Origin: an uncultured Clostridia bacterium
GTDB taxonomy: Bacteria > Bacillota > Clostridia > Christensenellales > Aristaeellaceae
NCBI GenBank assembly: GCA_937907055.1
Contig: CALCTW010000044.1
Span: forward strand, 2,401 to 34,400
DNA length: 32,000 nt
Direction: 5' to 3'
The notes below the pieces were generated by a model. It searched no databases, was not told the origin of the DNA, and was given only the letters and a program-made list of their open reading frames with translations. Of the stretch, positions 1 to 32,000 are shown in pieces (position 1 is the stretch's first letter; every line of letters begins with the position of its first letter). Position numbers and translations under genes: made by a program.

Positions 1-526
1 CGCGCGGCTTTGCTCCGGGTGTCAGGTTCAGGGAACGCTTCAGCGCGTATTCCAGCATTTTTTCCGCGGCGGTGTCCTCATCCTGTCCGAATGCCGAAAC
101 CGGCGCGATGTAGATATCCAGCACCGGGCGGTTCAGCCATTTTTCACGTGTACGGGCCTCCTGCTCGCAGTATTTCACCCCGAATACGCATTCGTAGGCA
201 AAATGCTCGCAGTTGTTGTGCAGCAGGCTGTATCCGTCTTCGCCGATCCGGGATCGTGCCGCGCGGATCGCCTTGTTCCGGTCCACACGGCGGAAGGGAT
301 CGCTCTTTTCCGGCTCGCCGATCTCAATGATCTGACCGCAGGAAAAGCTGTTGATATCCGTCACACAGACGCGGATCTCTTTTTCGTTCCGGTTCAGCGT
401 CTGCACCGGCGGCTCGCCGAACTGGATGATCTCATCGTCCGTCACGTACACGCCGTAATGATGGATCTGTCCCAGCGGAATGCGGATGATGTCACCGGCT
501 TTGCATTCGCCGGGCCACCATCTCAT
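1..526 (-). CDS. LRAT/PLAAT-like (NlpC/P60 superfamily) thiol acyltransferase/phospholipase domain protein. The 3' end lies outside the window, and the C-terminal extension is of unknown function.
   Basis: Manual reverse translation from ATG 526-524 gives MRWWPGECKAGDIIRIPLGQIHHYGVYVTDDEIIQFG...LLHNNCEHFAYEC. The H-box (HYGVYV) and the catalytic NCEHF motif are LRAT-family signatures. The frame stays open to position 1. The ATG overlaps the ACP stop (ATGA). It is absent from the ORF track because it runs off the window edge. Confidence 0.7.
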   Translation of the reverse strand, partial: MRWWPGECKAGDIIRIPLGQIHHYGVYVTDDEIIQFGEPPVQTLNRNEKEIRVCVTDINSFSCGQIIEIGEPEKSDPFRRVDRNKAIRAARSRIGEDGYSLLHNNCEHFAYECVFGVKYCEQEARTREKWLNRPVLDIYIAPVSAFGQDEDTAAEKMLEYALKRSLNLTPGAKPR

Positions 527-777
527 TTCACACGCTCCTGGATATAGGTCACGATATCGCCGATGGTCTCAAAGGTGTTGGCGGAGGCATCGTCGAAGAT
601 CGCGCCGAAGGTCTCTTCCATCGCGATCAGCACATAGAGCATCCCGGTGGAGGAGAGACCCAGCTCCGTGCGCACATTGGTCGCCTCCGTGCAGGTGCTG
701 ATCACCTGCGTATAGCGGCTGTCGGAGGACACCAGAATGTCCTTCAGCTGCTCAAAGATCTCATTTCTGTTCATCAC
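523..777 (-). CDS. Free-standing acyl/peptidyl carrier protein (ACP-like)
   Basis: 84 aa and acidic. It has an ACP helix-II-like motif, LGLSSTGMLYVLIAMEETFG, with a candidate phosphopantetheine serine. The start is GTG 777 or ATG 774, overlapping the upstream ligase stop. The stop is TGA. Confidence 0.8.
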   Translation of the reverse strand: MMNRNEIFEQLKDILVSSDSRYTQVISTCTEATNVRTELGLSSTGMLYVLIAMEETFGAIFDDASANTFETIGDIVTYIQERVK

Positions 778-2273
778 TTTTTCTTATACCTCAGGATCTT
801 CATGCTGGGGCTGCGTTCAAAATCCGTATCGCGGATCACGATGCGCGAAGCCCGGCAGTGAGAGGGGAGATTGCGGTTCACTTCTTCCAGCTGCGGCATC
901 AGGAAGGCGTTCACATCCGTCACGCCGCTCAGCTCGGTCGCGCGCGGTACTACTTCCAGCGCCAGAATGGTAATGCCGTTCTCGTTCACGTCCTCAAACA
1001 GCTGGCTGTCCTGCACCGCGGGCAGCTCGTTGAAATAGGCTTCCACCTCGGCGGGAGATACATTTTCGCCGTTCTCCAGCACAATGATCTCCTTGATGCG
1101 CCCGGTGATATACAGCAGGCCGTCCTCGTCAAAGCGCGCGAGATCGCCCGTGTGGAACCAGCCGTCCGCGTCGTAGGCCTTTTCCGGAGTGCCGCTGTAG
1201 GCGGTCAGCATATTATCGCCGCGCAGCAGCAGCTCTCCGTCCTCCAGACACAGCTCCTGGTTCGGGAAGGGCAGGCCCACGGAGGTCGGCTTGGCGGCAA
1301 ATTCCGGGTTGCCGGAAACCAGGTTGGCGCTCTCGGTCAGGCCGTAGCCGGGGAACAGGCTGATGCCGTATTTGCTGTATTCACTGATCAGATAGGGCGG
1401 CACAGCAGCCGCGCCGCAGATGATGGTGCGCATATCCGGCCCCAGCATCATGCGTCCGAATTTCTTGGAAAGGGACAGCGCCATGTCCGCCAGCGCGGGC
1501 ACCGCGATCCACATCGTGGGTCTGAAGGCTGCCGCGTCGCGGAACATCGCCTGCGGGCTGAGGCAGATGAACAGAGAACTGCCGGTATAGAAGGCCGCCA
1601 GTGTGCCGCGGATCAAGCCGAACACATGGGACATGGGCAGCGCCAGGATATAGCGCTGATCGAATACATCCTTGTAGCCGTAGCAGCCGTTGATCACGCC
1701 CTGCAGCACCGCGCGGTGGTTCAGCACAGCGCCCTTGCTGCGGCCGGTCGTGCCGCCGGTAAACATGATCACGCACTCGTCGGTGCCCTTCACATCGGCC
1801 GCCGGAACGGGTTCTTCCCGTTCGCTTCCTGTCATGCAGGGCACGCAGGTGATCGCCTGATCGCTTTCGGGGCCGACGACCGCCTTGCAGCCGAACATCT
1901 TCACCAGTCCCTCGATCGCCTGCACCGGCAGCTGAGCCGGCGCGATCGCGGCGGAGCATCCGGCAGAGGCCGCCGCCAGGAAGGCGACGATCAGGTTGTA
2001 GGAATTGGCCAGGTGCAGCAGCACACGGTCGCCCTTTTTCAGGCCTCTCTGGGCCAGCGCGCCGCGGAAGGCGGCGGTATCCTTCAGCAACTGCGCGTAG
2101 GTAAAGGCTTCGCCGTTATATTGCACCGCTTCGTGCTCGGCATAAGCTTCGCACCTTTCCAGCAGCTCCGGGATCGTGCTGATCTCGGTGATCTTATCAA
2201 ACACCTCCGCGGGGGCGTATTTCCGGAAGCTTTCACGGGAACCGCGGATGATAACGCGTTCTTCAGTGGACAT
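774..2273 (-). CDS. AMP-dependent synthetase/ligase (fatty-acyl-AMP / acyl-CoA ligase family)
   Basis: 499 aa. Adenylate-forming core motifs are present: FTGGTTGRSKGAVLNH (A3), GYGLTESA (A5), HTGDLARFDEDGLLYITGRIKE (A7/A8), and a C-terminal Lys in SMKILRYK. Confidence 0.9.
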   Translation of the reverse strand: MSTEERVIIRGSRESFRKYAPAEVFDKITEISTIPELLERCEAYAEHEAVQYNGEAFTYAQLLKDTAAFRGALAQRGLKKGDRVLLHLANSYNLIVAFLAAASAGCSAAIAPAQLPVQAIEGLVKMFGCKAVVGPESDQAITCVPCMTGSEREEPVPAADVKGTDECVIMFTGGTTGRSKGAVLNHRAVLQGVINGCYGYKDVFDQRYILALPMSHVFGLIRGTLAAFYTGSSLFICLSPQAMFRDAAAFRPTMWIAVPALADMALSLSKKFGRMMLGPDMRTIICGAAAVPPYLISEYSKYGISLFPGYGLTESANLVSGNPEFAAKPTSVGLPFPNQELCLEDGELLLRGDNMLTAYSGTPEKAYDADGWFHTGDLARFDEDGLLYITGRIKEIIVLENGENVSPAEVEAYFNELPAVQDSQLFEDVNENGITILALEVVPRATELSGVTDVNAFLMPQLEEVNRNLPSHCRASRIVIRDTDFERSPSMKILRYKKK

Positions 2274-6774: not shown

Positions 6775-7683
6775 ATGCCGGGATCAGGCCGCATCATTTA
6801 TTATCATCTGCCCGGGCTTTTTGAGTTTACCGATCTTTACCGGGTCTTCCTTCAGCTTTACCGGGATCACCGGGACTGGTTCTATGATGACTGCCGCATC
6901 GCCTCCATCTACGGGGCTCCGGCGGATTGCCTCTGGGGCGGCGGTCGGGTCGGCTTCGGGGACGCGGATCTGTCCTCGGTCCTTTCTCTCGTCCGGGAGC
7001 ACGGCATTTCCGCCCGTCTCACGTTCAGCAATTCTCTTCTGCGGCCATAGCATCTCTCAGATCCCCGTTGCAATCGTCTCTGTGAGTCTTTTCAGCACGC
7101 GGGCCCTGTTCAAAGCGGCATCATCGTCCATTCCGATCTTCTGCTTCAGTACCTGAAGCAACGTTATCCGGATTTTTACTTCGTATCCTCCACCACCAAG
7201 GTCCTTACCCGGTTTGAGGATCTCCGTTCAGAACTGGATCGTCCTGATTTCCGCTTTGTCGTTCCCGATTTCCGTCTCAATAAGGCCTTTGATCAGCTTT
7301 CCGCCCTGACAGACATGCAGAAAAGCAAGGTCGAATTCCTCTGCAATGAATGCTGCAGCATCTCCTGTCCGGACAGGAAAGCCTGTTATGAAAATGTCAG
7401 CCGCAAAAATCTGGGGGAGACATGCCCGGATCATCGCTGCGCCTCCCCGGATGCCGGTCAGGGCTATCGTTTTTCAAAAGCCATGCGGAATCCGTCCTTC
7501 ATCAGCCTGTTCGATATCCGTACGGTCTATCTTCCGCTCGGTTTTTCTCATTTCAAGATCGAGGGGCGCAGCCTCGGCAGCGCGGTCATTCTGGAATTCC
7601 TGCTCTATTATCTCACCCGCCCGGAATTCCATCTGCAGGTGCGTGAGGAGATCTATCTTGATAGCATGCTGGATCTTTTCTGA
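6775..7683 (+). CDS. Conserved Cys-rich protein, U32-peptidase-like (KIEGR motif), interrupted by one in-frame TAG at 7048-7050. Either a pseudogene or a recoded/read-through gene.
   Basis: ORFs 6718-7050 and 7315-7683 are in the same frame. The 88 codons at 7051-7314 are open with coding-like composition and contain no ATG/GTG/TTG. The only defect is the TAG. Motifs: FKIEGRS and the CNECCSISCPDRKAC cluster. The family assignment is tentative. Confidence 0.6.
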
Positions 7684-8860: not shown

Positions 8861-8952
8861 TGGCGGAGAAGGAGAGATTCGAACTCTCGAACGGTTTTAC
8901 CCGTTACACGATTTCCAGTCGTGCGCCCTCGACCAAGCTAGGCGACTTCTCC
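8861..8952 (-). tRNA. tRNA-Ser(GGA), class II with a long variable arm and encoded CCA
   Basis: The reverse complement folds as a cloverleaf. Acceptor stem is GGAGAAG/CTTCTCC. Anticodon stem is CACGA/TCGTG with loop CU-GGA-AA. The variable arm is ACGG...CCGT and the T-arm is GAGAG-TTCGAATC-CTCTC, followed by discriminator G plus CCA. Confidence 0.93.
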
Positions 8953-9161: not shown

Positions 9162-11876
9162 TCAGTTCAGCTTGATGCCGTACATGGCGGCATTGCCCTT
9201 GCTGCAGGTGCCGATCACCAGCACGTTCTTATATACCGCGGGGCTGCTCTGGATCGTTCCGCCCAGGTTCAGGGTGGAGATCTCCGCGCCGCTCACGCCG
9301 TCCAGCAGGTGCAGCACGCCGCTCTCGTCCGCCTGAATGATCCAGGCGTTCCCCAGCTCGTTGTACACAGCCACGGGGGAGGAGACAGCCGTCGTGGTCA
9401 GCTCGCGGGTCCAGCGGATCTTGCCGCTCTTCTTTTCAAAGGCCATCACAGCGCTTGTCTTGCCCTTGCCGGTCATGTTCACCGTGAAGATCACCAGGTC
9501 ATCGATCGCGTTTTCACCGATCACCGGGCTGGCTTTGCATCCGGCCAGTTCGCTGCTGTTGTAAACGCAGCTCACATCCGCTTTCCAGATCTCTTCGCCG
9601 GTCAGGGCGTCCAGACGGCGGATCACACACTTTCCGTCCTTCTTTAGGCGCTCATAGCAGGTCGTTCCGGTATACAGGCCCAGATTGCCGTCCTCGTCAA
9701 AGTCCAGCGCGATGCTGGCATCCGTATTGTCGCCGCAGTCCACCGCCCACACCGTATTCATGGTGGTGGTGTCCACGCAGCGCAGCAGGCCGTAGGTATC
9801 CGCCATGTACACATATCTGCCGTACATGGCCGCGCTGCTCTCAATTCCCGTGCGGTTGTCCTTCTGGGCGTTGGCCTTGCTCTTCAGGTACACCGTGTCG
9901 GCATTGATGGTCAGGTTCGTCGCGCCGGCAGGGAAGGTGGTATGCAGATCCACCGTGTACAGCAATCCGTTCTCGCCGCCGATGATCAGCGCGTCACCGT
10001 CCTCCTGGCTCAGGAACAGGCCGGTTCCGTCAAAGGCGCCGTTGGCGGAGTATTGTTCGTTCTGGCGGCCGTTCAGGAACAACAGCTGTTTCTGATCCAC
10101 CAGGTTGTATACATAGTATCCGATCGATCCGGTTTTGTTGGCCAGCTTGGAGACCGCCTGACCGATGCCCATGATCGGGCGGGAGTAGGGATCGACCGCC
10201 GCGCTGCTCTTCAGCGGGAAGCCGATATTGATGCAGTCGCGGGTCTGTTCGCCGGTCGTCAGGTCCAGGAAGTAGATCTTTCCGTCCAGCGCGCCGAAGA
10301 TCACTTCCTTCAGTCCCTGCTTTTCCTTTTTCGCGTCATACAGGTTCATGATGGCGCGTACATCGCCGGGCCACTTGATAATGGCGGGCTGTGTGCCCCA
10401 GCCGACACCGTACAGCGTGCCGTCGCTCGTCTTCAGGCTGCCCAGATCCTTCTTCCACAGGATCTCCATCTGTCCGGTCGTGATCTCCACGGTGCTGTAG
10501 GCGGCATTGCGGCGGAAGTTGTCGCCGCGGAAGGTGAAGATACCGTTATTCGCGTAGGTATAGTGGTTCGGGTCGGGCGCGTTGTAGGGCAGCTCACGGG
10601 TGAAGCCGGATTGCTTCTTTCCGCCCTTATAGATCGCCTGCAGCAGCTTCACCAGCGAGGGATCGGTCCGGCCGGTCACGGCGGCAGCGTCCAGCACAGG
10701 CATGGGGGTCGCGGTGGGATCCGGCACCTCGGTCGGTTCCGGGGTCTCGGTGGGATTGGGCGTCGGTACCTCCGTCGGCATCGGGGTGGGCTCCGGCGTG
10801 ATCATCTCCGTGGGGGCCGGGGTCGGCACTTCGGTCTCCGCCGGCGCGGGGGCTTCGGTCGGGATCGCGGTCGCGTTCGCCACGGGCACAAATCCGGAGG
10901 CGTTCACATCCTCGGGCTCCTCGGTCGGGGCAGCGGTGGGCACCATGGTCACAAATACAGGCGCCTGTGTCACAAAGGGCACTTCGGTCACGGGCGCGGC
11001 GGTCACCGGCGCTTCGGTCTCAACGGCATCCTTCACGATCACGCGGATGCGCGCGTTGGTGTCCTTCAGTTCGGTGTTCAGGTTCTCGCGGATCTGCACG
11101 CGGAAGTAGCCGTCATATTCGGCGGCCAGATACACTCGCACATCCCAGGTGCCGTTGTCACCGTTGGTGTAGGTGCCGATCACTTCGCCGGTCTGCTCGT
11201 AGATCAGGCGGATCTCCGCCACGGAGGCAGAGGTCTTCACCGTAAATTCCAGCGGCTGCGCGGTGGTGCAGCTCTCGTTGTTGCCCTTCGGGCAAACGAT
11301 CGTCACATTGGCGCTCGTATCCTGCGTGCTCACCTCCGGCGTGACCACGGGGGCGTTCACACCGTTTCCGGTCAGGTTGCTGAATTTTTCGCCGATGCCG
11401 TTTCCGGGCACCAGCACGAAGAAGGCGATCACCAGTCCCACGATCAGCGCGATCAGCATGGCGATCAGCACCTTGGGCCACACAGGGCTGTTATCCTCTT
11501 CCGGATAGTACGGAGGCGTGTTCTCCGGGGCGTATCCGCCGTCATCGTACGGCGAATAGGGGGATTCGCCCCTCGGCATCTCATATTCGTTTCCGTTCGC
11601 GCCGGGCTGCGGGCGTTCCGCGGGACGCTCAAAGCGCGTCGTGCTGCCGGGCGCGGCAGCGGAGGCGGGCTGGAAACGCACCGTTTCGCCGCCGGCATTG
11701 CCTGTCGGCATCCTGTCTCCGCGGTGTCTGATCGTTGTATCCGGCGCGGCGGGCATCGGCGGCACGTATTCGCGCGCCTCCGGCTGCTTCTCGGTGGATT
11801 TGATATATTGCTCGTGTTCGTTCCCTCTCATCCTGTTGGGATCGTACTGCGGGTTATAGTCATGCTTTTCGCTCAA
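9162..11876 (-). CDS. Single-pass membrane protein. Domains in order: disordered Pro/Tyr-rich cytoplasmic N-terminus, TM segment, Ig-like region, Pro/Thr-rich linker, and a PQQ-like (BamB-like) beta-propeller ectodomain.
   Basis: 904 aa. TTG start preceded by GAAGGAGGG at 7 nt. TM segment is VLIAMLIALIVGLVIAFFVLV. A PT linker of about 110 aa precedes a C-terminal region with repeated G-x-hydrophobic-Y/W strand patterns typical of PQQ-like propellers. The domain call is by eye. Confidence 0.75.
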   Translation of the reverse strand: MSEKHDYNPQYDPNRMRGNEHEQYIKSTEKQPEAREYVPPMPAAPDTTIRHRGDRMPTGNAGGETVRFQPASAAAPGSTTRFERPAERPQPGANGNEYEMPRGESPYSPYDDGGYAPENTPPYYPEEDNSPVWPKVLIAMLIALIVGLVIAFFVLVPGNGIGEKFSNLTGNGVNAPVVTPEVSTQDTSANVTIVCPKGNNESCTTAQPLEFTVKTSASVAEIRLIYEQTGEVIGTYTNGDNGTWDVRVYLAAEYDGYFRVQIRENLNTELKDTNARIRVIVKDAVETEAPVTAAPVTEVPFVTQAPVFVTMVPTAAPTEEPEDVNASGFVPVANATAIPTEAPAPAETEVPTPAPTEMITPEPTPMPTEVPTPNPTETPEPTEVPDPTATPMPVLDAAAVTGRTDPSLVKLLQAIYKGGKKQSGFTRELPYNAPDPNHYTYANNGIFTFRGDNFRRNAAYSTVEITTGQMEILWKKDLGSLKTSDGTLYGVGWGTQPAIIKWPGDVRAIMNLYDAKKEKQGLKEVIFGALDGKIYFLDLTTGEQTRDCINIGFPLKSSAAVDPYSRPIMGIGQAVSKLANKTGSIGYYVYNLVDQKQLLFLNGRQNEQYSANGAFDGTGLFLSQEDGDALIIGGENGLLYTVDLHTTFPAGATNLTINADTVYLKSKANAQKDNRTGIESSAAMYGRYVYMADTYGLLRCVDTTTMNTVWAVDCGDNTDASIALDFDEDGNLGLYTGTTCYERLKKDGKCVIRRLDALTGEEIWKADVSCVYNSSELAGCKASPVIGENAIDDLVIFTVNMTGKGKTSAVMAFEKKSGKIRWTRELTTTAVSSPVAVYNELGNAWIIQADESGVLHLLDGVSGAEISTLNLGGTIQSSPAVYKNVLVIGTCSKGNAAMYGIKLN

Positions 11877-15082: not shown

Positions 15083-15844
15083 TTATTTCGGTTCCCAGCG
15101 CCCGGCATCCGCTTCGCTCCGGGCAAAGTCCAGCAGGCATTCCACCCACAGCTTCAGCCCGTCGTCGCCCAGGTGATACTTGCCGTCCGAGGAATAGCTT
15201 TCCTTCAGATAACCTTCCTCGTCCTTCAGCACCTCGGCGATCTCCAGATACACCGCGCCGTTCTTTTCGCAGGCAGCCTTCATGGCCACGTTGTATTTGT
15301 CCCACATCGTGCGGTAGTCTTTTTTCCGGCAGAACGCGCGTGTCACCGGGGTCAGGGACTGGAACACGATCACCGTCTCGGGGGAGGCTTCTTTGGCCAG
15401 CTCGATGATCCTTTCCACATAGCCGATCCCCTTGTCGATCGTCTCGCCGATATAGTCATTCACGCCCAGCAGGATGAACACATAGCGCGGCTTCAGCTGG
15501 CGGATGATGTTGGTCATCGTGCTCTCATCGCCGTTCAGGGTCAGGTTCACCGCGTCGCTCTGCAGGTATTTGCGGCTGGCGATATACAGCATATAGCTCT
15601 GCGCGGTAAAGAACCGTGTGCCTTTCATGAAGGCCGGGTCCTTCTTCTGCTGCTCCAGCACATACACGCGCAATTGTCTTGTGATCGAGTCGCCCACAAA
15701 AATGCAGTTGTCAAAGAAGGGATAAAGCGCCTCGTTACTCAGCCGTTGTATTGTGCTTTCTGTCTGCTCCTCCGCGTTCACACCCGGCAAAAGCAGCAGG
15801 ATCATCATCAGCGCCAGCAGCGCTGCAGTCAGGCGGTGCATCAT
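15083..15844 (-). CDS. Secreted SGNH/GDSL-family hydrolase or acyltransferase
   Basis: Block I is FVGDSITRQ, block III is LLGVNDY, and block V is DGKYHLGDDG. A signal peptide is present. The start at 15844 (MMHRL) is preferred, with RBS GGAAGGGGG upstream. The ORF track extends it to 15874. Confidence 0.8.
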   Translation of the reverse strand: MMHRLTAALLALMMILLLLPGVNAEEQTESTIQRLSNEALYPFFDNCIFVGDSITRQLRVYVLEQQKKDPAFMKGTRFFTAQSYMLYIASRKYLQSDAVNLTLNGDESTMTNIIRQLKPRYVFILLGVNDYIGETIDKGIGYVERIIELAKEASPETVIVFQSLTPVTRAFCRKKDYRTMWDKYNVAMKAACEKNGAVYLEIAEVLKDEEGYLKESYSSDGKYHLGDDGLKLWVECLLDFARSEADAGRWEPK

Positions 15845-16037
15845 GTTTTCCCCCTTCCGTTCAACGTGTTCCATTATATGCTTTGCTCCCCTTCTTTGTC
15901 AACCGCCGGGGGCGCTTCACCCCTTGCGGGAACGGCTTTTCTATGGTATCCTGCTCATAACGCATTCTGTTTTTTTACATTGTTAAGGGTCCGCGTTTCA
16001 TGCGCGTGATCCATGATCTATGAAAGGAAGTATTTCT

Positions 16038-18726: not shown

Positions 18727-19191
18727 ATGATCACACTCGGTGTCGTGTCCGATTCTCATGGCGATAAAGGCCGCCTCGGCAACATCATGATGATGTTTTA
18801 GTATAAGAAGGTGGACGGGGTCATCCATCTGGGGGATGGCTGCCGGGATATGGAGCCCTATGCCGCGGCCTTCAGACAGGTCTGGCAGGTCGCCGGCAAC
18901 TGTGATTTTTCCTCCCTTCCGCGGGAGGAGGTCATCACGATAGGCGGACAGCGCATCCTGATCACCCACGGGCATCGCTTCATGGTCAAGAGCAGCACCA
19001 CGCTGCTCGGCATAGAGGCGGAGGAGCAGGGGGTCAAAGCCGCGCTCTTCGGTCACACGCACGAGCCCTTTATCGATTATCACGGCGGCATCCTGCTGCT
19101 GAACCCCGGTTCCGCGCATGACGGCTGCTACGCCATATTGAAGATCCACGATAACGGCATGGTGGAGGGCGAGCTCAACCGCCGCGCCTGA
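18727..19191 (+). CDS. YfcE/YsnB-family metallophosphoesterase with one in-frame TAG at 18799-18801 (codon 25). Either a pseudogene or a recoded/read-through gene.
   Basis: ATG 18727 follows RBS AAGGAGGGG. The N-terminal segment MITLGVVSDSHG carries the essential DxH motif. After the TAG the same frame continues with VDGVIHLGDG, GNCD, ITHGH and GHTH. There are no other defects. Confidence 0.75.
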
Positions 19192-19297
19192 CACACGGCA
19201 GGGGAGAGATCTTCTTTGGATCCGTGCCATCCGCGTCCGAGCATACTTCCCTTTCCGCTTTTTTCCGTTGTTCCCTGTACCGATCAAAAGCAAAAAT

Positions 19298-19327
19298 GTG
19301 TCCGGCAGCGTGTCGGGCACATTTTTT
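19298..19327 (+). terminator. Rho-independent terminator of the rph operon
   Basis: GTGTCCG-gcagcgtgt-CGGGCAC stem (one G-U pair) followed by ATTTTTT. Confidence 0.65.
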
Positions 19328-19551
19328 ACATCTGTACTCTACCACACTTTGGAGTGACCTGCAATGAACCTCTGCTGACTTTTTCTATCCTTTTCTATCC
19401 TTTGTTCAACCTCTTCGCGCCTTTTGTGACCTTTACTGACCTGATTTAATATTTTTGTAACATTTAACGGCGCTCTCTCTTTTTTCGCGCCTCGGCCGCC
19501 TGTTTTCCGCGCTGTTTTTTCGCGAAAAAGCGCCTTCTCCTCCGTCACGGG

Positions 19552-19581
19552 TTGCGGCGCGCCGCAAAAAGGTGGTATAAT
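19552..19581 (+). promoter_or_regulatory. Putative promoter overlapped by a perfect 16-bp palindrome
   Basis: TTGCGG, 18 nt spacer, TATAAT (19576-19581). The palindrome TTGCGGCGCGCCGCAA spans 19552-19567. Confidence 0.4.
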
Positions 19582-19668
19582 CTTGATGATCAGGCGGAGT
19601 ATTCCGCTGTCCTTTGCGTTATCCGGCTCCGCGGCCGCTTTATATCTTCAGAAAGGAAGCACGATACC

Positions 19669-21129
19669 ATGTCCAGCCGAAAAGAAAAATGGATGAGTCA
19701 GCTTGCCGCGCTCCTGCGGGATGATGATGTTTTCTGGAATAACGAGATCAAGGCCAATATCTTCGTCAGTTTTTCCCTGATGATCCTCGCGTTTGTGCTG
19801 GTGCTGTCCTATGTCCTGGCTTCAGCCGGGGTCTTCAATGTTCCGAAGGAGCATATGCAGCTCACCATGATCATCAATATCCCCATCATCCTCGCGGCCA
19901 TCATCGTCAGCAATGTCTTCAAGGGTCAGAAGAAGTGGATCAAGTACATGCTCTGTATCACCAGCATCCTGACCGCCGGGGCCCTTGGCGCTGTGCTCAA
20001 TATCTTCGTTGCCCTCATCTGGGCCATTCCGGTCATCCTCAGTGTCCGCTATTACAGCGTGCGCCTCACCGGGATCATCGCGCTCCTCACTGTGGTCGAT
20101 ATGCTGGTCTCCCTGTATTTCTTCGGCATCGCGGGCATGGTCGATCTTAATCTCGTCAAGGTTCCCGCGCAGGCCACCCTGCAGGTCACGGATACGCTCC
20201 GTGATGCTGTCACCGCCCATGGTTATGATCTGCACACCTATCTCAGCGCTCTGTTCCGCGGTTCCTTCATGCCGCGTCTGCTTTTGTTCATCATCATCGC
20301 CTTCACCTGTCTGGAACTGTCCCGCCGCGCGCATGAGAATATTCTGGAGCAGGCCGCGATCTCCCGCAAGACGGAGGGCATGCGCACGGAGCTTTCGATG
20401 GCCAGCGCCATCCAGAGCGGCGTGCTGCCCAAGTTCTTTCCGCCCTATCCGGCCAGAAAGGAATTCGATATCTACGCCACCATGACACCGGCCAAAGAGG
20501 TCGGCGGTGATTTTTACGATTTCTTCTTCATCGATGATGATCATTTCATGCTCGTCATGGCGGATGTTTCCGGCAAGGGCGTTCCGGCTTCGCTTTTCAT
20601 GATGACCAGCAAGATCCTGCTCAAGACCTCCGCGCTCCATAGCATGTCGCCCGGCGAGATCGCGCAGAGTGTGAATGATATCCTCTGTTCGGATAATGTG
20701 CTGGATATGTTCGTCACCGTCTGGATGGGCATCGTGCAGCTTTCGACCGGCGAGGTCGTCTCCATCGATGCCGGCCATGAATATCCCATCCTGTGCCGCG
20801 CGGACGGGCGGTACGAGGTCTTCAAGGATAAGAAGGGCTTTGTCCTCGGCGGCATGGAAGGCACGCGTTACCGGGAGACTGCCTTCACGCTGGCGCCGGG
20901 CGATACTCTTTTCCTGTATACCGACGGTGTTCCGGAGGCGACCGACCGCAATGAAGCAATGTTCGGCATGGATCGCACCCTTGCCGCGCTCAACAGCGAT
21001 CCTTCCGCCGGTCCGGCAGCGCTGCTGCAAAATGTCCGTTCCGCGGTCGATACGTTTGTCGGCGACGCGCCGCAGTTTGATGATCTCACCATGCTCGCTT
21101 TCCGCTACAACGGCCCTGACGCGAAATGA
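19669..21129 (+). CDS. Membrane-bound PP2C-family (SpoIIE/RsbU-like) serine phosphatase
   Basis: The N-terminal half has about 5-6 TM segments. The C-terminal PPM domain contains EVGGDFYDFFFIDDDHFMLVMADVSGKGVPASLFMM, LFLYTDGVPEA and QFDDLTMLAF. The start at 19669 follows GAAAGGAAG. Confidence 0.85.
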   Translation: MSSRKEKWMSQLAALLRDDDVFWNNEIKANIFVSFSLMILAFVLVLSYVLASAGVFNVPKEHMQLTMIINIPIILAAIIVSNVFKGQKKWIKYMLCITSILTAGALGAVLNIFVALIWAIPVILSVRYYSVRLTGIIALLTVVDMLVSLYFFGIAGMVDLNLVKVPAQATLQVTDTLRDAVTAHGYDLHTYLSALFRGSFMPRLLLFIIIAFTCLELSRRAHENILEQAAISRKTEGMRTELSMASAIQSGVLPKFFPPYPARKEFDIYATMTPAKEVGGDFYDFFFIDDDHFMLVMADVSGKGVPASLFMMTSKILLKTSALHSMSPGEIAQSVNDILCSDNVLDMFVTVWMGIVQLSTGEVVSIDAGHEYPILCRADGRYEVFKDKKGFVLGGMEGTRYRETAFTLAPGDTLFLYTDGVPEATDRNEAMFGMDRTLAALNSDPSAGPAALLQNVRSAVDTFVGDAPQFDDLTMLAFRYNGPDAK

Positions 21130-21228
21130 TCATCTGACCGGGCGGTTCTCCGGCGGCACGGTGTGTTCACGCGCGTGACCGCTCCGTTCCGGTTTATCCG
21201 TTTCCATCCCCTGATCCGCGTAGTAAAA

Positions 21229-21264
21229 ATCCCCGGGAGAAGGTGCTTTCCTTCTCCCGGGGAT
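21229..21264. terminator. Bidirectional rho-independent terminator between convergent genes
   Basis: A 15-bp perfect stem, ATCCCCGGGAGAAGG-tgcttt-CCTTCTCCCGGGGAT, flanked by AAAAA and CTTTT. Confidence 0.8.
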
Positions 21265-22777: not shown

Positions 22778-24484
22778 TTATTCAGCTTTTTCCGCCTTTT
22801 TCGCGGTCTTCCGGGGGGCCTTTTTGGCAGGCTCCTTCACCGGCTTTTCAGCGGTCTCGGTCTTTTTCGCGGCGGTCTTCTTTGCTGCCTTCGCGGGCTT
22901 TTCCGCTTCCGCGCCGGCCTTCACGGCAGCCGTTTTCCGGGGCGTTTTGGCCTTCGCGGGCTTCTTTACGCTCTCTTCGGCAGGGATCACCTCTGCAGGC
23001 GCTGCTTCCGCGGGCTTTTCCTCGGCTTTTTCAGCAGTCTCCGCGGGGGCGGCCAGCAGGGTCTCATACAGCTTCAGATAGGTATCCGCGCTGTGATCCC
23101 AGCTGTAATCGCCGCTCATGCCGCGCTTCTGCAGCTTTTCCCACACGGCCTTGTCGGTCCTGTAGTAGTTCAGGGCGCGGCGCAGGGTGTACAGCATGTC
23201 GTGCGCGTTGTAGTTAAAGAAGCTGAAGCCGTTTCCGGCGTCATTGTAATCATTGTAGCTCAGCACGGTGTCGCGCAGGCCGCCCGTCTCGCGTACGAGC
23301 GGGATGGTGCCGTAGCGCATGGCCAGCATCTGGCTCAGACCGCAGGGCTCAAACTGGCTGGGCATCAGGAAGAGATCGGCGCCGGCATACAGGCGGTGCG
23401 CCAGACCGGCATCCATGCAGAAGCGCGCGGCTACGCGGCCGGGATACTGCTGCTCGGCCCAGCTGAACAGGTTCACATAGCGGCTGTCGCCCATGCCCAG
23501 CACCACAAACTGCACATTCTCGTTCATGATATCGCTGATCACATAATCGATCAGGTCCAGACCCTTCTGGTTGTTCAGACGGCTGATGATGGCCAGCAGG
23601 GGGATGTTCTCATCCACGGTCAGGCCCAGTTCCTTCTGCAGCTCGCTCTTGCAGATCTTCTTGCCGCTCATGTCCTCCACGGTGTAGTTGGCCGGGATGG
23701 TCTTGTCGGTGGCAGGATCGTATTCTGTGGTGTCGATGCCGTTCAGGATGCCGCTCAGATGATTGTTCTTGGCGCGGAGCAGTCCGTCCAGGCGCTCGCC
23801 GTAGTAGGCGGTCTGGATCTCCTCGGCATAGCTTGGCGAGACGGTGGTGATCTCATCGCTATAGACCAGCGCGGCCTTCATGTAGTTGGCGCAGCCGTAG
23901 CATTCCAGCTTGTCATTGGTGAACAGGCTGTCACCCAGACCCATGATGTCCTGTACGTCACGGATGGAGAAGATGCCCTGATACTGCAGGTTGTGGATGG
24001 TGTACACCGTCTTCATCTTGGCGAAGAAGGGCAGATGCGCGTACTGGATCTTCAGCAGGGCCGGCACCATACCGCTCTGCCAGTCATGGCAGTGGATGAT
24101 ATCGGGTTGGAAGCCCAGCAGGGGCAGCGCGTTCAGGCAGGCGCGGCAGAAGAAGCCGAAGCGTTCAAATTCGTCGCCGCCCATGCCGTAGATATAATTG
24201 CGGTTGAAGTAGAATTTGTTGTCGATGAAGTAGAAGGTCACACCGCGGTACTGCAGCTCCTCAATGCCGCAGTACTGCTTGCGCCAGCCCAGATCGATCT
24301 CAAAATCGCAGGCGTGACGCAGCTGCTGGCGGTAACTATCGGGGATCTGGCCGTAAAGGGGCAGCATCACGCGCACGTCATGGCCCTTGGCTGCCAGCAC
24401 GGGAGACAGAGCGCCCACCACATCGGCCAGACCGCCGGTCTTGATGAAAGGTACGCACTCCGCGGCAGAGAAAAGGATCTTCAT
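22778..24484 (-). CDS. glgA: Glycogen (starch) synthase GlgA with a 91-aa Lys/Ala/Pro/Glu-rich C-terminal extension
   Basis: MKILFSAAECVPFIKTGGLADV (KTGGL motif), a GT5 core, and LMPSQFEPCGLSQM. The canonical end is near YLKLYETLL. The low-complexity tail is encoded by 22781-23053. Confidence 0.93.
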   Translation of the reverse strand: MKILFSAAECVPFIKTGGLADVVGALSPVLAAKGHDVRVMLPLYGQIPDSYRQQLRHACDFEIDLGWRKQYCGIEELQYRGVTFYFIDNKFYFNRNYIYGMGGDEFERFGFFCRACLNALPLLGFQPDIIHCHDWQSGMVPALLKIQYAHLPFFAKMKTVYTIHNLQYQGIFSIRDVQDIMGLGDSLFTNDKLECYGCANYMKAALVYSDEITTVSPSYAEEIQTAYYGERLDGLLRAKNNHLSGILNGIDTTEYDPATDKTIPANYTVEDMSGKKICKSELQKELGLTVDENIPLLAIISRLNNQKGLDLIDYVISDIMNENVQFVVLGMGDSRYVNLFSWAEQQYPGRVAARFCMDAGLAHRLYAGADLFLMPSQFEPCGLSQMLAMRYGTIPLVRETGGLRDTVLSYNDYNDAGNGFSFFNYNAHDMLYTLRRALNYYRTDKAVWEKLQKRGMSGDYSWDHSADTYLKLYETLLAAPAETAEKAEEKPAEAAPAEVIPAEESVKKPAKAKTPRKTAAVKAGAEAEKPAKAAKKTAAKKTETAEKPVKEPAKKAPRKTAKKAEKAE

Positions 24485-27222: not shown

Positions 27223-27228
27223 GATACC

Positions 27229-27512
27229 GCTGTAATGGCGATGATGGGAAGAAAGACATCCGGGATGTGTCAAGAGAGCTGCCGGGCGGTGCAAGGCGGT
27301 CACGGAAGGGTGTTATACTGGTCCCGGAGCTGCTGTGCCGAACGATCCTCCAGTAGGTGCAGCCGGGTTTCCCCCGTGACAGGGAACACGATTCGCGAAA
27401 GCTGATCGTACTGAGCGGCCGCAAGGCAATAAGAGTGGTACCGCGGAACCTGATATCAAAAAGTTCCGTCTCTTAAACTGACGTTTTGTTTCAGTGAGGA
27501 GACGGTTTTTTA
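27229..27512 (+). promoter_or_regulatory. T-box riboswitch leader (tRNA-sensing transcription attenuator), probably Leu-specific
   Basis: GA/K-turn-like GCGAUGA near the 5' end, AG-bay AGAGAG (27273-27278), and GGUGCAA distal-loop-like sequence. The T-box core AGAGUGGUACCGCG lies at 27432-27445. The antiterminator arm GGAAC/GUUCC competes with the terminator CCGTCTC...GAGACGG plus TTTTTT (27466-27511). Tandem CUG CUG at 27330-27335 follows the Stem I helix CCGGGA/UCCCGG. Confidence 0.85.
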
Positions 27513-27632
27513 TTACGGTTTTTCCGCTGGCCGCGGGCGCTTCTTTGAGGGCGTTTTTTCCGTCAGGAATGATATAAAAACAGGCCGCGAAAAACGCGGC
27601 TGTCCCGATTCGGGATCATATGAGGTGATAAC

Positions 27633-28106
27633 ATGGGAAAGATCTTCAAGTTTGAAAAGGACGTGGATACCGATCAGATCATCGCGTCCCAGTATCTGCT
27701 GTTTCCCACCATCGATGAAATGAAGGCGCACACGTTCGAGTCGCTGGATACCGCCTTTGCCTCTCAGGTAAAGCCGGGCGATTTTGTGGTGGCGGATGAA
27801 AATTTCGGCTGCGGCTCCTCGCGTGAGCAGGCCCCCAGCGTGCTGAAGGCGCTGGGTGTCAAGGCCGTTGTGGCCAAGTCCTTCGCGCGCATCTTCTACC
27901 GCAATTCCATCAACATCGGCATGCCGGTCATCGTCAGCAAGGAGCTGCACGATGTCGTTTCCGCGGGCGATGAAATGGAACTGGATCTGGAAAAGGGTCA
28001 GATCACCGCGAACGGAAAGATCTATCCCTGCACCCGTCTTCCCGGCAAAATGCAGGAGATCCTGGATCAGGGCGGTCTGATCGCCAGCTTGAATAAGGAG
28101 GATTGA
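27633..28106 (+). CDS. leuD: Aconitase-family dehydratase small subunit (LeuD-like), paralog 1
   Basis: 157 aa. Motifs [20 protein letters not shown] and ARIFYRNSIN. Confidence 0.88.
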   Translation: MGKIFKFEKDVDTDQIIASQYLLFPTIDEMKAHTFESLDTAFASQVKPGDFVVADENFGCGSSREQAPSVLKALGVKAVVAKSFARIFYRNSINIGMPVIVSKELHDVVSAGDEMELDLEKGQITANGKIYPCTRLPGKMQEILDQGGLIASLNKED

Positions 28107-28110
28107 CATC

Positions 28111-29361
28111 ATGGGCATGACAATGGCTGAAAAGATCATCGCCTGCGCCGCGGGCGTTCCGTCGACCAAAGCCGGTGATATCGAGACCGTCACGCTGGAT
28201 CGTCTCATGAGCAATGACGGCACCACCCACCTGACGATCGATATGTACAATAATAAATTAACCAATCCGCGCATCGCGGATGTTTCCAAGCTGGTCTGGA
28301 TCGTGGATCACAATATCCCGGCGGACAGCCCGAAGACTGCCGCTTCCCAGAAAAAGATGCGTGATTTCGCGCGCGAGCACGGCATCACCTTCTATGAGGG
28401 CGAGGGCGTGTGTCATCAGGTGATGATGGAAAAGCACGTCCGTCCGGGCGAACTGATCTTCGGCGCGGATTCCCACACGTGCGCCTACGGCGCGCTCGGC
28501 GCGTTCGGCACCGGCGTCGGCTGCACGGATTACCTTTACGCCATGGTCACCGGCACCTCCTGGCTGCTGGTCCCGGAGACCTTGCGTTTTAATTTGAAGG
28601 GCCGCCTGCCCGAGGGCGTTTACGCCCGTGATCTGATCCTTACCATCATCGGCCGCATCGGCGCGAACGGCGCTAATTACAAGGCCATGGAGTTCGCGGG
28701 GGAGGGCCTTGCCACCCTCACGATGGCGGATCGTATCTCCATCTGCAACCTGTGCGTGGAGGCCGGCGCGAAGACCGCGCTGATGGAGGTGGATGACACC
28801 GCCATGGCGTATCTGACTGAGCATGGCCGTACGCCCAAGGCTGTTTTCACCTCCGATCCCGATGCCGTGTTCGCCAAAGTCTATGATATCGACCTGTCCG
28901 AGATCCGCCCCATCGTGGCAAAGCCCCACTTTGTGGATAATGTGGTCCCGGCGGAGGAATGCCTCGGCGTTCATATCGATGAAGCCTTCCTCGGCTCCTG
29001 CAATAACGGCCGCATCGAGGATCTGCGTGTCGGCGCCGCGGTCATCAAGGGCAAGAAGGTCGCGCCCAAGGTGCGCTTCCTCGTGGTCCCGGCCAGCCGC
29101 GCGGTCTATAAGCAGGCCATGCTGGAGGGCCTCCTCGATATCTTCATGGAAGCCGGCGCGATCGTCATGAACCCCAACTGCTCCGTGTGCTGGGGCGCCT
29201 GTCAGGGCGTCATCGGCGAGGGCGAAACGCTCATTTCCACCGGCACCCGCAATTTCAAGGGCCGCGCCGGTCACAAGGATTCCTTTGTTTATCTGGCTTC
29301 GGCCGCCACGGTCACCGCTTCCGCGATCGCGGGCGAGATCACCACGGCGGACCGCGTGTAA
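28111..29361 (+). CDS. leuC: Aconitase-family dehydratase large subunit (LeuC-like, short archaeal/clostridial type), paralog 1
   Basis: 416 aa. GADSHTCAYGALGAFGTG, with Fe-S cysteines in GSCNNGR and NCSVCWG. RBS AAGGAGGA. Confidence 0.9.
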   Translation: MGMTMAEKIIACAAGVPSTKAGDIETVTLDRLMSNDGTTHLTIDMYNNKLTNPRIADVSKLVWIVDHNIPADSPKTAASQKKMRDFAREHGITFYEGEGVCHQVMMEKHVRPGELIFGADSHTCAYGALGAFGTGVGCTDYLYAMVTGTSWLLVPETLRFNLKGRLPEGVYARDLILTIIGRIGANGANYKAMEFAGEGLATLTMADRISICNLCVEAGAKTALMEVDDTAMAYLTEHGRTPKAVFTSDPDAVFAKVYDIDLSEIRPIVAKPHFVDNVVPAEECLGVHIDEAFLGSCNNGRIEDLRVGAAVIKGKKVAPKVRFLVVPASRAVYKQAMLEGLLDIFMEAGAIVMNPNCSVCWGACQGVIGEGETLISTGTRNFKGRAGHKDSFVYLASAATVTASAIAGEITTADRV

Positions 29362-29373
29362 CGGAGGGACGAT

Positions 29374-29862
29374 ATGACATTTACAGCAAAGATCTGGGTG
29401 CTGGGGGATGACATCGACACCGATATCATCCTGCCCACCGAATATCTGGCGCTCAAGAGCGTGGAGGATATGAAGCCCTACGCCTTCTCTCCGCTCCGTC
29501 CGGAGCTGGCCGCTCTCATTCAGCCCGGCGATATGATCGTGGCCGGCAAGAATTTCGGCTGCGGCTCCTCGCGTGAGCAGGCCCCCGAGGTGGTCAAGGC
29601 GCTGGGCATCTCCTGCGTGGTGGCCAAGTCCTACGCGCGCATTTTCTTCCGCAACGCCATCAATAACGGCCTTTTGCTCATCGAGAACGCCGATCTTTAC
29701 GATGCCGTCACCGAGGGCGGCACGGCGGAGGTCACTCCGGGCGAAAAGATCGTCTACAACGGCAAGACCTACGAGATCGCTTCCTTGCCGGAGAATCTGA
29801 TGGAGATCCTGAACGCCGGCGGGCTTGTCAAGGCCATGAGAAAACGGAACGGTCTGGGCTGA
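29374..29862 (+). CDS. leuD: Aconitase-family dehydratase small subunit (LeuD-like), paralog 2
   Basis: 162 aa. Motifs [21 protein letters not shown] and [10 protein letters not shown]. Confidence 0.88.
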
Positions 29863-29875
29863 GCAGGAGGACAGA

Positions 29876-31117
29876 ATGGGAAATACAGTTATCGAAAAGA
29901 TCATTGGCAATAAGGTTGGCCATCCTGTGCGCCCCGGTGATATCGTCACCGTGCCGGTGGACTGGTGCATGGTCGATGACATCATGGTGCCGTTCTGCGT
30001 CAAAAAGTTTGAGGAAATGGGCTTCAAAAAGGTCTGGGATCCGGATCGTGTGGTGCTGATCTACGATCACTTCCTGCCGGCCACGCAGACCGATGATTCC
30101 CGTCACTTCCGCGAGGGCGACGCCTTCGCCGAAAAATACGGCATCCGCAATATCCACCGCACGGACGGCATCTGCCATCAATTGATGACCGAGGCCGGTT
30201 ATGTGAAGCCGGGCGATATCTCCTTCGGCACGGACAGCCACACGGTCACCTACGGCTGTGTCGGCGCGTTCGCGACCGGCATCGGTTACACCGAGATGGC
30301 CGGCATTTTGGGCACGGGCGAGTTGTGGATCCGCGTGCCGGAATCCATTCGGGTGGAGATCAACGGCACATTGCCTCAAAATGTCACCTCCAAGGATGTC
30401 ATCCTGCGCGTGATCGGCGATCTGACCGCTTCCGGCGCCACCTACCGCTCTTTGGAATTCTGCGGCAGCACCGTGGATGCCATGAGCGTGGCCGGCCGCA
30501 TGACCATGTCCAACATGGCGGTGGAGGCCGGCGCCAAGTGCGGCGTGTTCGCGCCGGATGAGAAGACCTGCGAATACTGCGGCATTCCCTTCACCGAGAA
30601 GGAAAAGGCGCTGCAGGCGGACGCGGACGCTTCCTACGCGCGGGTGCTGCGCTATCAGGCGGAGGAGCTGGTGCCCGTCGTGGCCTGCCCCTCGCTGGTG
30701 GATAATATCAAACCGGTCTCCGAGGTGGCGGGCACCAGGGTGGATCAGGTGTTCCTGGGCTCCTGCACCAACGGCCGTCTTGAGGATCTGCAGGCGGCCG
30801 CCCAAATCCTGAAGGGCAAGACCATCGCCCCCTATCTCAAGATGATCGTCACCCCGGCCAGCCGCAAGGTCTACCGCGCGGCGCTGCAGGACGGCACACT
30901 GGAGATCCTGGCCGATGCCGGATGCATCATCACCACGCCGGGCTGCGGCCTTTGCTGCGGACGCGGCGGCGGCATCCTGTCGGATCATGAAGTGGTGGTC
31001 GCCACCAATAACCGCAATTTCCTGGGCCGTATGGGCACCAGCAAGGTGCAGATCTATCTGGCCTCCCCGAAGACCGCGGCCATGACCGCGCTCGCGGGCG
31101 TGATCACGCAGGCCTGA
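29876..31117 (+). CDS. leuC: Aconitase-family dehydratase large subunit (LeuC-like), paralog 2
   Basis: 413 aa. GTDSHTVTYGCVGAFATG, with Fe-S cysteines in GSCTNGR and GCGLCCG. Confidence 0.9.
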   Translation: MGNTVIEKIIGNKVGHPVRPGDIVTVPVDWCMVDDIMVPFCVKKFEEMGFKKVWDPDRVVLIYDHFLPATQTDDSRHFREGDAFAEKYGIRNIHRTDGICHQLMTEAGYVKPGDISFGTDSHTVTYGCVGAFATGIGYTEMAGILGTGELWIRVPESIRVEINGTLPQNVTSKDVILRVIGDLTASGATYRSLEFCGSTVDAMSVAGRMTMSNMAVEAGAKCGVFAPDEKTCEYCGIPFTEKEKALQADADASYARVLRYQAEELVPVVACPSLVDNIKPVSEVAGTRVDQVFLGSCTNGRLEDLQAAAQILKGKTIAPYLKMIVTPASRKVYRAALQDGTLEILADAGCIITTPGCGLCCGRGGGILSDHEVVVATNNRNFLGRMGTSKVQIYLASPKTAAMTALAGVITQA

Positions 31118-31170
31118 CGGAAGAATAATATAAATCAGTTCACAGTATACAGAGGAGAGGTACATATCCC

Positions 31171-32000
31171 ATGATGGACGCAAGCAAGTACAAGGTTGGT
31201 TATTTCACCCCGCCGGTCGAGCCCGGCCATGTGTATAAATGGATGCTGAAGGATCACATCGAGGTTCCGCCCACATTCTGCAGCGTGGACCTGCGTGACG
31301 GCAACCAGAGCCTCATCGTGCCCATGAGCCTGGAGGAAAAGCTGGAATTCTTCAAGCTGCTGGTCGAAGTGGGCTTCAAGGAGATCGAGGTCGGTTTCCC
31401 TGCCGCCTCCGAAACGGAATATGAATTCCTGCGCACCCTGATCGACAATCACATGATCCCCGATGATGTGACCGTGCAGGTGCTTACCCAGTGCCGTGAC
31501 CACATCATCCGCAAGACCTTTGAGGCCGTGAAGGGCGCGCCCCGAGCCGTCATCCACTTCTACAATTCCACCTCCAAGGCCCAGCGCGAGCAGGTGTTCA
31601 AGAAGAGCAAGGAAGAGATCAAGCAGATCGCCGTGGACGGCGCGAAGCTGGTCAAGCAGCTTTCCGAGGAATTTGAGGGCGATTTCCTGTTTGAATACAG
31701 CCCCGAATCCTTCACCGGCACCGAGCCGGAGTATGCCGTGGAGGTGTGCAACGCGGTTCTGGATGTGATGCAGCCCACCAAGGAGCGTCCCATGATCCTG
31801 AACCTGCCTGTCACCGTGGAAATGAGCATGCCGCATGTCTATGCCAATCAGATCGAATGGTGCTCCGATCACTTCAAGTATCGTGACGGCGTCATCATCT
31901 CCAGCCATCCCCACAACGACCGCGGCACCGGCGTGGCCTGCGCCGAAATGGCCTGTCTCGCGGGCGCGGACCGCATTGAGTGCTGCCTCTTCGGCAACGG
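31171..32000 (+). CDS. leuA: 2-isopropylmalate synthase, long (LeuA type 2, actinobacterial-like) form. The 3' end lies outside the window.
   Basis: Manual translation gives MMDASKYKV...[51 protein letters not shown]...HFYNSTS...[12 protein letters not shown]...[11 protein letters not shown]...CLFGNG. The frame is open to the window end. RBS AGGAGAGG. Confidence 0.93.

Follow-up and report, generated by a model that had tools for sequence, protein, structure and literature searches.

The 32,000-nucleotide stretch of DNA analyzed here, called the window throughout (GenBank assembly GCA_937907055.1, contig CALCTW010000044.1, positions 2,401 to 34,400 of the forward strand), is a 32-kb chromosomal segment of an uncultured, gut-type Clostridia bacterium, with a G+C content of 0.53-0.62 along its length. 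It contains two genes, here named gene A and gene B, that are each intact except for a single in-frame TAG codon. An original prediction, made from the letters of the window, had held that UAG is read as a sense codon, or is efficiently suppressed, in this organism. The gene set was re-derived from codon-position G+C, a codon-usage score, and homology, and the claim that these two TAG codons are the sole in-frame stops, with no interrupting TGA or TAA and no frameshift in any gene of the window, was confirmed. Re-reading the window with TAG as a sense codon revealed no further TAG-containing open reading frame with a coding signal. The two genes and their TAG codons are as follows.

6775-7683, plus strand: gene A, 302 codons, cysteine-rich, intact save for a TAG at codon 92
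7048-7050, plus strand: first in-frame TAG (context CGG CCA TAG CAT CTC), at the near-invariant Glu of the motif SNSLLR-x-E-HL
18727-19191, plus strand: gene B, a 154-codon YfcE-family metallophosphoesterase gene, intact save for a TAG at codon 25
18799-18801, plus strand: second in-frame TAG (context ATG TTT TAG TAT AAG)

Two genes interrupted by TAG

Gene A had no match in Pfam or NCBIfam; it belongs to a family with more than 8000 homologue clusters, and the 120 homologues listed were full-length proteins of 296-326 amino acids with 70-75% identity. In the alignment column of the TAG, Glu was found in 113 of the 117 full-length homologues and Gln in none; in a smaller alignment, Glu occupied the column in 17 of 18 sequences. 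The AlphaFold2 model of the homologue P0001 (predicted local distance difference test score of 87.6) displayed a TIM-barrel-like fold, and its best match in the PDB was the U32 peptidase Mk0906 (5d88, E 1.8e-6), suggesting that gene A encodes a member of a distant U32-peptidase-like TIM-barrel family. The sole ATG downstream of the TAG, at codon 181, corresponds to Ala or Thr in other strains of the species, and gene callers did not agree on a consistent start. Given that no internal start is conserved, separate expression of the downstream part of gene A is implausible.

The gene A family (P0001-P0120) is uncharacterised; its members are 70-80% identical across Clostridia, Lachnospiraceae, and even Fibrobacter, and share an invariant Cys-rich motif, EFLCNECC...C..R..CYE. 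Two further members carry an in-frame TAG at or near the same place. In L013 (positions 1066-1068), the TAG lies at the very codon at which gene A has its TAG (...LLRE*HL), and in L014 (positions 951-953), it lies one codon off that site (...LLR*EHF), the remainder of the L014 gene being intact. These two sequences come from unrelated lineages, with G+C contents of 0.58 and 0.42, and their nearest relatives have K and Q there. A special recoding site in the family was considered on the basis of L013 and L014 and set aside, since both were found by seeking fragments that end at this place. Their TAG codons may be coincidence or error, and frameshifts and truncation by contig ends are common among fragments of this very large family.

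Gene B lies directly 3' of an rph-rdgB fusion gene. Residues 4-140 of its product matched Pfam Metallophos_2 (E 2.7e-26) and TIGR00040 yfcE (E 6e-23), and both matches span the TAG. The metal-binding D-x-H motif (DSHG, residues 9-12) is located upstream of the TAG; a product begun downstream of it would be devoid of DSHG, which makes independent expression of that part implausible. At the position of the TAG, Glu is present in the three closest homologues, namely, P0242, P0244, and the orthologue in L007, a genus-level relative, where the codon is GAG.

Conservation among strains and the background of stop codons

Contigs of the same species were available for gene A (L009, L010, L011, and L012) and for gene B (L006, L095, L096, and L097). 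Their sources are two SRA runs assembled by Logan, two MEGAHIT assemblies from ENA, and one metagenome-assembled genome (MAG) from NCBI. In all, six to seven assemblies were compared; the MAG is GCA_045628485.1, of which L096 is contig JAZQPK010000218.1. Nucleotide identity to the window was 95.8-97.9%, showing that the contigs represent different strains of one species. Beyond the species, the window proteins are approximately 70-82% identical to the nearest proteins of MAGs named 'Clostridia bacterium'. A scan of JGI metagenomes, using as the query the esterase encoded between the two TAG genes, gave no contig of the same species (best identity 72%) and yielded the 80 related metagenome contigs L015-L094 (626 kb), which served for comparison. 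A search of the GTDB representative genomes with the membrane-bound O-acyltransferase (MBOAT) of the window gave matches of at most 42% identity and no close relative.

Each of the two TAG codons was present in all five assemblies of its gene (the window, L009, L010, L011, and L012 for gene A; the window, L006, L095, L096, and L097 for gene B), and these assemblies are independent and were produced by different pipelines. In gene A, the TAG and 9-12 flanking bases were identical in the five strains, and the flanks of the gene B TAG likewise did not differ between its copies. No strain copy of either gene contained a second stop codon or an indel. The differences between the strains arose after the TAG codons, and their pattern thus tests whether the genes have remained under constraint. 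Gene A displayed 29 synonymous and 18 non-synonymous differences among the five strains, corresponding to a ratio of non-synonymous to synonymous rates (dN/dS) of 0.19; these were divided into six synonymous and one non-synonymous before the TAG and 23 and 17 past it (codons 93-303; dN/dS 0.22, p 1.9e-6). Gene B displayed 17 synonymous differences and one non-synonymous difference (dN/dS 0.02, p 1.8e-10), with three and none before the TAG and 14 and one past it (p 1.5e-8). The substitutions that followed the TAG codons in genes A and B are overwhelmingly synonymous on both sides of each TAG, and both genes are under purifying selection past it. The truncated products expected under translation table 11 were found by exact-sequence look-ups in several public assemblies, as a 91-amino acid N-terminal part for gene A and a 113-amino acid C-terminal part for gene B.

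Two additional TAG codons were found in the strain represented by L096, at positions that are occupied by other codons in the window.

15767-15769, minus strand: GAG codon of the SGNH/GDSL lipase gene (15083-15874), codon 36 counted from the ATG at 15874
20356-20358, plus strand: codon 230 of the SpoIIE/PP2C phosphatase gene (19669-21129)

The lipase codon reads GAG in four sequences (the window, L006, L010, and L095); L096 has TAG there, in a gene that is otherwise intact and free of indels. At the phosphatase codon, the window has GCG (Ala), L006 and L095 both have GAG, and L096 has TAG; split gene calls of 229 and 249 amino acids were confined to the L096 MAG. As singletons, these two TAG codons carry less weight than the fixed ones. 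The G-to-T rate of the L011/L096 strain (0.0046) was the lowest of the four strain comparisons; since it is not raised, the extra TAG codons are unlikely to be errors of sequencing or assembly.

The original prediction had also counted the terminators of the window and taken the absence of TAG among them as support.

523-31117: 25 genes with their 3' ends in the window, 17 ending in TGA, 8 in TAA, and none in TAG (each gene end was read)

Our recount agreed exactly with these numbers, and in L009 three further genes of the species lie beyond the left edge of the window, with the terminators TGA, TGA, and TAA. The argument drawn from the count is void, however. In the 80 related contigs, TAG ends 16 of 456 genes (14 of 454 after dropping two in-gene TAG codons), that is, approximately 3-3.5%, whereas a share of 10-20% had been assumed. 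Many of these TAG ends in the relatives are genuine, given that orthologues stop at the same residue with TAA or TGA. At the clade baseline, the probability of finding no TAG among 25 terminators is 0.41, and for 0 of 28 in the species it is 0.37 at a baseline of approximately 3%. With TAG accounting for only about 3% of terminators in the clade, its lack in the window carries no weight. The fact that both interruptions are TAG is likewise weak evidence when taken alone, because 53-58% of single-base nonsense mutations would yield TAG at the codon usage of the window, where GAG, CAG, and AAG are at least as common as GAA, CAA, and AAA.

The interruptions themselves exceed chance by a wide margin, being shared by all sampled strains in genes under purifying selection. 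In-gene stops interrupt 2 of 26 genes in the window and 4 of 26 in the species, compared with 3 of 456 genes in the relatives (Fisher p 0.025 and 2e-4), so that the rate in the species is more than 10 times that of the relatives. The scan of the relatives was made against called genes only and its hits were checked by hand; most of them were stops in conserved 5' leaders. Two other designs had been dropped, namely, a scan for interrupted genes based only on the codon score, which flags normal same-frame gene junctions, and a six-frame homology scan of all open reading frames, which matches conserved alternative frames. All three true in-gene stops in the 626 kb are TAG.

L055, position 6320, plus strand: TAG in an esterase gene at a Trp position, TGG in the 98%-identical L044
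L016, position 4980, minus strand: TAG in a DHHW gene at a conserved Leu
L017, position 4123, minus strand: TAG in an MBOAT gene at a conserved Glu

The TAG of L055 is clearly a strain-specific nonsense change or an error. The relatives look like standard-code organisms with occasional nonsense variants, from which the species of the window differs. The lineage is coherent in this respect: all sampled strains share both TAG codons, and L007 has GAG at the gene B site. L007 also uses TAG as an apparently genuine terminator, and in family-level relatives TAG terminates genes whose orthologues elsewhere stop at TAA or TGA.

The simplest alternative is that genes A and B are ordinary pseudogenes, or carry assembly or consensus errors, in an organism that uses the standard code. 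It draws some support from the sporadic in-gene TAG codons of the relatives (Trp in L055, Leu in L016, and Glu in L017), from TAG being the commonest nonsense product at this codon usage, and from the two extra TAG codons of L096 being singletons. Against it stand the identity of both window TAG codons in every independent assembly of each gene, the strongly synonymous divergence past them (p 2e-6 and 1.5e-8) with no more stops or indels, and the more than tenfold excess of in-gene stops over the relatives. Fixation across strains combined with purifying selection excludes sequencing error and recent pseudogenisation, and the same reasoning removes the reservation of the original prediction that two recent nonsense mutations or consensus errors might be involved, the assemblies being independent, 2-4% apart from the window, and divergent mainly at synonymous sites. 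We regard this alternative as very improbable. With errors and pseudogenisation set aside, the ribosome must pass the TAG codons often enough for both proteins to matter. The claim that UAG is a sense codon or is efficiently suppressed is thereby supported by the fixed TAG codons and the selection past them, and we consider functional read-through of UAG highly probable in this species, in at least two genes and probably in four.

The amino acid at UAG and its candidate decoder

All four TAG codons of the species are located at Glu/GAG positions. GAG accounts for 17-21% of the one-step routes to TAG, and four of four at Glu would be expected by chance with p of approximately 0.001-0.002. With the G-to-T rate at four-fold sites as the yardstick, neutrality predicts 0.8 GAG-to-TAG changes for the L011/L096 strain and a total of approximately four for all four strain comparisons (these are not independent of one another). 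Two were observed, a rate close to neutral. No TGG-to-TAG and no GAA-to-TAA change was found among the strains, although GAA (296 codons) is about as common as GAG (299 codons). Restriction to Glu argues against pyrrolysine (Pyl) and against suppression of the Gln type, and the pattern of the four sites makes UAG = Glu the most likely assignment.

Suppression that inserts another residue was weighed against this assignment. UAG might be read, for instance, as Gln by a supE-like tRNA-Gln(CUA), perhaps acquired from a TAG-recoded prophage, with TAG being kept at tolerant sites. A Glu-to-Gln exchange is conservative, and the evidence for read-through does not by itself reveal the inserted residue; in addition, a report on archaeal UAG decoding (10.1101/2024.09.30.615893) cites as background TAG-to-Gln decoding with suppressor tRNAs as a known natural use of TAG in gut phages. 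None of the four TAG codons, however, is at a Gln position, and the gene A column, as described above, never contains Gln. C-to-T transitions are about six times commoner than G-to-T changes among the strains, and if TAG meant Gln or were freely tolerated, approximately four CAG-to-TAG differences would be expected per strain pair; none was seen (Poisson p 0.017 for one pair). The interrupted genes are also chromosomal and of housekeeping type, in a window without phage genes. Suppression with a residue such as Gln is unlikely on this evidence.

It was also considered that no dedicated tRNA exists and that release factor 1 (RF1) is lost or weak, so that near-cognate tRNAs (Glu, Gln, Lys, Tyr, or Trp) read UAG and mixed products suffice at tolerant sites. 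Near-cognate tRNAs are able to read UAG in Escherichia coli strains that lack RF1. The support for read-through applies equally to this explanation, no tRNA with a CUA anticodon is present in the sequence scanned, which is a tiny part of the genome, and the rarity of TAG (2 of 9,446 codons in the window) fits poor decoding. Mixed insertion should not, however, confine TAG to Glu codons (four of four), and it is hard to square with a dN/dS of 0.02 in gene B or with the 97%-conserved Glu of gene A. We therefore view near-cognate reading as improbable.

In a third alternative, pylTSBCD genes would be present and UAG would be translated as Pyl, as in known Pyl-containing bacteria or in a bacterial counterpart of the archaeal genetic code termed Code 34. 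In bacterial chromosomes, no natural sense reading of UAG other than Pyl has been described, genome-wide use of TAG for Pyl occurs in archaea with few TAG terminators (10.1101/2024.09.30.615893; 10.64898/2026.05.24.727570), and Pyl decoding needs no local RNA element, in agreement with the folding results below. As Pyl has no synonymous neighbor codon, however, its TAG codons should arise from any of eight codons, in contrast to the four of four at Glu/GAG, and it is unlikely that a bulky lysine derivative could neutrally replace an acidic residue with 97% conservation. Reports of bacterial Pyl are limited to methylamine methyltransferases and one serine dehydratase, and the authors describing Code 34 state that it is unseen in bacteria (10.1101/2024.09.30.615893). 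The window contains no pyl or methyltransferase genes, and none of the four TAG codons lies in a methyltransferase gene. Pyl is, in our view, distinctly improbable here.

Local recoding signals were searched for around the TAG codons. The 100 nucleotides downstream showed no significant RNA fold relative to shuffled sequences (z -0.4 for gene A and -1.0 for gene B), and neither did windows spanning the TAG codons (z +0.6 and -0.1). The contexts of the four TAG codons share no motif, and the next base is C, T, C, and A. A PYLIS- or SECIS-like element and a read-through signal were both rejected, as neither a structure nor a shared context was found. The lack of downstream structure together with the differing contexts argues for general codon-level decoding instead of site-specific recoding.

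The window encodes a single RNA gene, detected with ARAGORN and the Rfam gathering thresholds.

8861-8952, minus strand: tRNA-Ser(GGA), the sole RNA gene in the window

This tRNA is ordinary and is not a candidate decoder of UAG. A scan of the window and of 41 loci, among them all those of the same species, revealed no tRNA-CUA. The statement of the original prediction that the window has neither tRNA-CUA nor pyl genes and contains one ordinary tRNA-Ser(GGA) was thus borne out.

With slightly better than even confidence, we favor the reading that UAG is translated as Glu by a dedicated tRNA. UAG would then not be a terminator, or not only a terminator, and its read-through would be efficient enough to keep the interrupted genes functional. 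Most economically, the putative decoder would be a tRNA with the anticodon CUA that is charged with Glu. It could have arisen from tRNA-Glu by a change of the anticodon from CUC to CUA or from a tRNA-Gln-like molecule (CUG to CUA) that is charged by a non-discriminating glutamyl-tRNA synthetase (GluRS) and not amidated. Clostridia generally lack a glutaminyl-tRNA synthetase, and their non-discriminating GluRS accepts YUC and YUG anticodons. Because such a GluRS is already relaxed at anticodon position 36, a mutant tRNA with CUA could stay chargeable with Glu, and if the tRNA were devoid of the determinants recognized by the amidotransferase GatCAB, the Glu would not be converted to Gln. Competition by RF1 would presumably be weakened or lost; RF1 would be dispensable, since release factor 2 (RF2) reads UAA and UGA. 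Codon capture would be cheap, given that TAG forms only about 3% of the terminators in the clade. Under such a code, a GAG-to-TAG change is synonymous and could drift to fixation, as in genes A and B, or segregate, as in the lipase and SpoIIE genes of L096. The effect would be expected to reach across the genome.

In its full form, this scenario amounts to a new bacterial code: throughout the genome, UAG would serve as a 62nd sense codon (Glu), read by a tRNA-Glu-type tRNA(CUA), with RF1 lost or disabled and only UAA and UGA remaining as stops. This is a tentative proposal, to which we give distinctly less than even confidence. If true, it would be the first UAG reassignment other than Pyl in a cellular prokaryote, captured at an early stage, with few TAG codons and GAG/TAG polymorphism.

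Several observations count against the assignment to Glu and against a reassigned code. When only E, K, and Q positions are treated as likely sites, on the basis of codon counts, the probability of four of four at Glu rises to approximately 0.015. Glu positions are often surface-exposed and tolerant of change. In the window, TAG constitutes approximately 0.3% of the Glu codons (2 versus 595), a share so low that either the change is recent or TAG is inefficiently decoded. For the gene B site, the homologues from which the ancestral state is deduced are only about 60% identical. The species is represented by approximately 35 kb from one genomic region, with four TAG sites, two of which occur in a single MAG. 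As the 0 of 28 TAG terminators is uninformative, UAG may still terminate some genes, which would correspond to ambiguous decoding. No tRNA-CUA, prfA, gltX, or pyl genes were found in the window or in the approximately 35 kb of species sequence. No bacterial UAG reassignment emerged from a k-mer screen covering some 2.7 million NCBI assemblies as of July 2025 (10.64898/2026.04.02.715157), and the accessible text on a Codetta screen of more than 250,000 genomes mentions none either (PMC8629427). The MAG of the species is in NCBI and may or may not have been included in either of these large screens.

Neighboring genes and comparison with known codes

The remaining genes of the window encode ordinary functions. 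No phage genes were identified by gene annotation, and there was no sign of a phage or plasmid.

Throughout the window: acyl-AMP ligases, acyltransferases, an MBOAT protein, DHHW proteins, a GDSL lipase, and an esterase
Also in the window: an RNase PH-RdgB fusion, a SpoIIE-type phosphatase, HtrA, and GlgA, GlgD, and GlgC
Also in the window: two aconitase-family subunit pairs and one tRNA-Ser(GGA)
9162-11876, minus strand: a 904-amino acid secreted or membrane protein with a long Pro/Thr/Glu-rich linker and a weak PQQ-like beta-propeller signature, of no clear family
22778-24484, minus strand: GlgA with a C-terminal tail of approximately 100 residues rich in Ala, Lys, Glu, and Pro (…AEKAEEKPAEAAPAE…KKTAAKK…), which is unusual for GlgA
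27633-31117, plus strand: two tandem aconitase-family pairs (LeuD/LeuC-like), each with the small-subunit gene first
31171-31998: a homocitrate/isopropylmalate-synthase-like gene, cut by the end of the window

One segment of the window differs from the others in strain divergence. Over positions 19283-21230, which cover an intergenic region and the SpoIIE-type phosphatase gene, the window and L006 are only about 87% identical, compared with 97.9% over the 5.4 kb to the left. In the same segment, 72 synonymous and 41 non-synonymous differences were counted between the window and L095. The segment is thus a local hot spot, either of divergence or of recombination.

The consequences of a UAG = Glu code, if it is real, would extend beyond this species. 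It would be evidence that organisms in nature can dispense with RF1-dependent termination, a step taken artificially in recoded E. coli, and would offer a very young reassignment with GAG/TAG polymorphism in which the 'codon capture' and 'ambiguous intermediate' models become directly testable. It would provide synthetic biology with a natural Glu-inserting amber-suppressor pair and would explain the split or 'pseudogene' calls in these MAGs, where annotation under table 11 truncates at least two to four of approximately 26 genes. Implications would also follow for TAG-recoded gut phages, for whose hosts termination at UAG is assumed.

In the literature searched, the stop-codon reassignments described for bacteria all concern UGA, and no report was found of a bacterial chromosome in which UAG encodes a standard amino acid; the view that a reading of UAG other than Pyl would be an undescribed bacterial variant agrees with this. 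The known UGA codes (table 4, UGA = Trp, in Mycoplasmatales and others; table 25, UGA = Gly, in Gracilibacteria/Absconditabacteria) share with the present case an in-frame stop codon at conserved positions of housekeeping-type genes on a bacterial chromosome, one amino acid at all sites, a coherent lineage, and a codon that was rare as a terminator beforehand. They differ in that the codon here is UAG, so that the loss of RF1 instead of RF2 would be expected. Moreover, a UCA-anticodon tRNA and the loss of RF2 are documented for the UGA codes, whereas a tRNA-CUA and the loss of RF1 are predicted here, and the frequency of the sense codon is far lower here (0.02% of codons).

Archaeal Code 34 (Kivenson et al., 10.1101/2024.09.30.615893) likewise uses TAG as a sense codon in ordinary genes without a local element, has few TAG terminators, and is hard to detect by coding density. 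Unlike the present case, which concerns a bacterium and Glu/GAG positions only, it is archaeal, depends on pylTSBCD, and does not tie TAG to one standard amino acid. TAG-recoded phages (table 15, TAG = Gln) and amber suppressors (supE) also read UAG in the bacterial cytoplasm and belong to, or act in, gut Bacillota/Bacteroidota systems; the suppressor tRNA they employ is of the kind proposed here. The phage codes, however, concern phage genes and Gln, whereas the genes studied here are chromosomal, lie outside any phage context, and give data that speak against Gln. The eukaryotic nuclear codes in which UAR (UAA and UAG) means Glu (Blastocrithidia nonstop, table 31, and peritrich ciliates) coincide with the present case in reading UAG as Glu, and one report states that in Blastocrithidia UAG is read by a cognate tRNA-Glu (PMC12153298). 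Those codes involve changes in eRF1 and reassign UAA as well, whereas here TAA ends 8 of 25 genes and never occurs in frame.

Among the features that characterize a reassignment, those examined here were in-frame use in genes under selection, a single amino acid (at four sites only), and a coherent lineage, and all three were observed. The features examined for Pyl, Gln suppression, joint reassignment of UAA and UAG, programmed recoding, and pseudogenes were at odds with the data. By analogy, the case resembles the UGA codes of bacteria in its logic and the eukaryotic UAR = Glu codes in its meaning.

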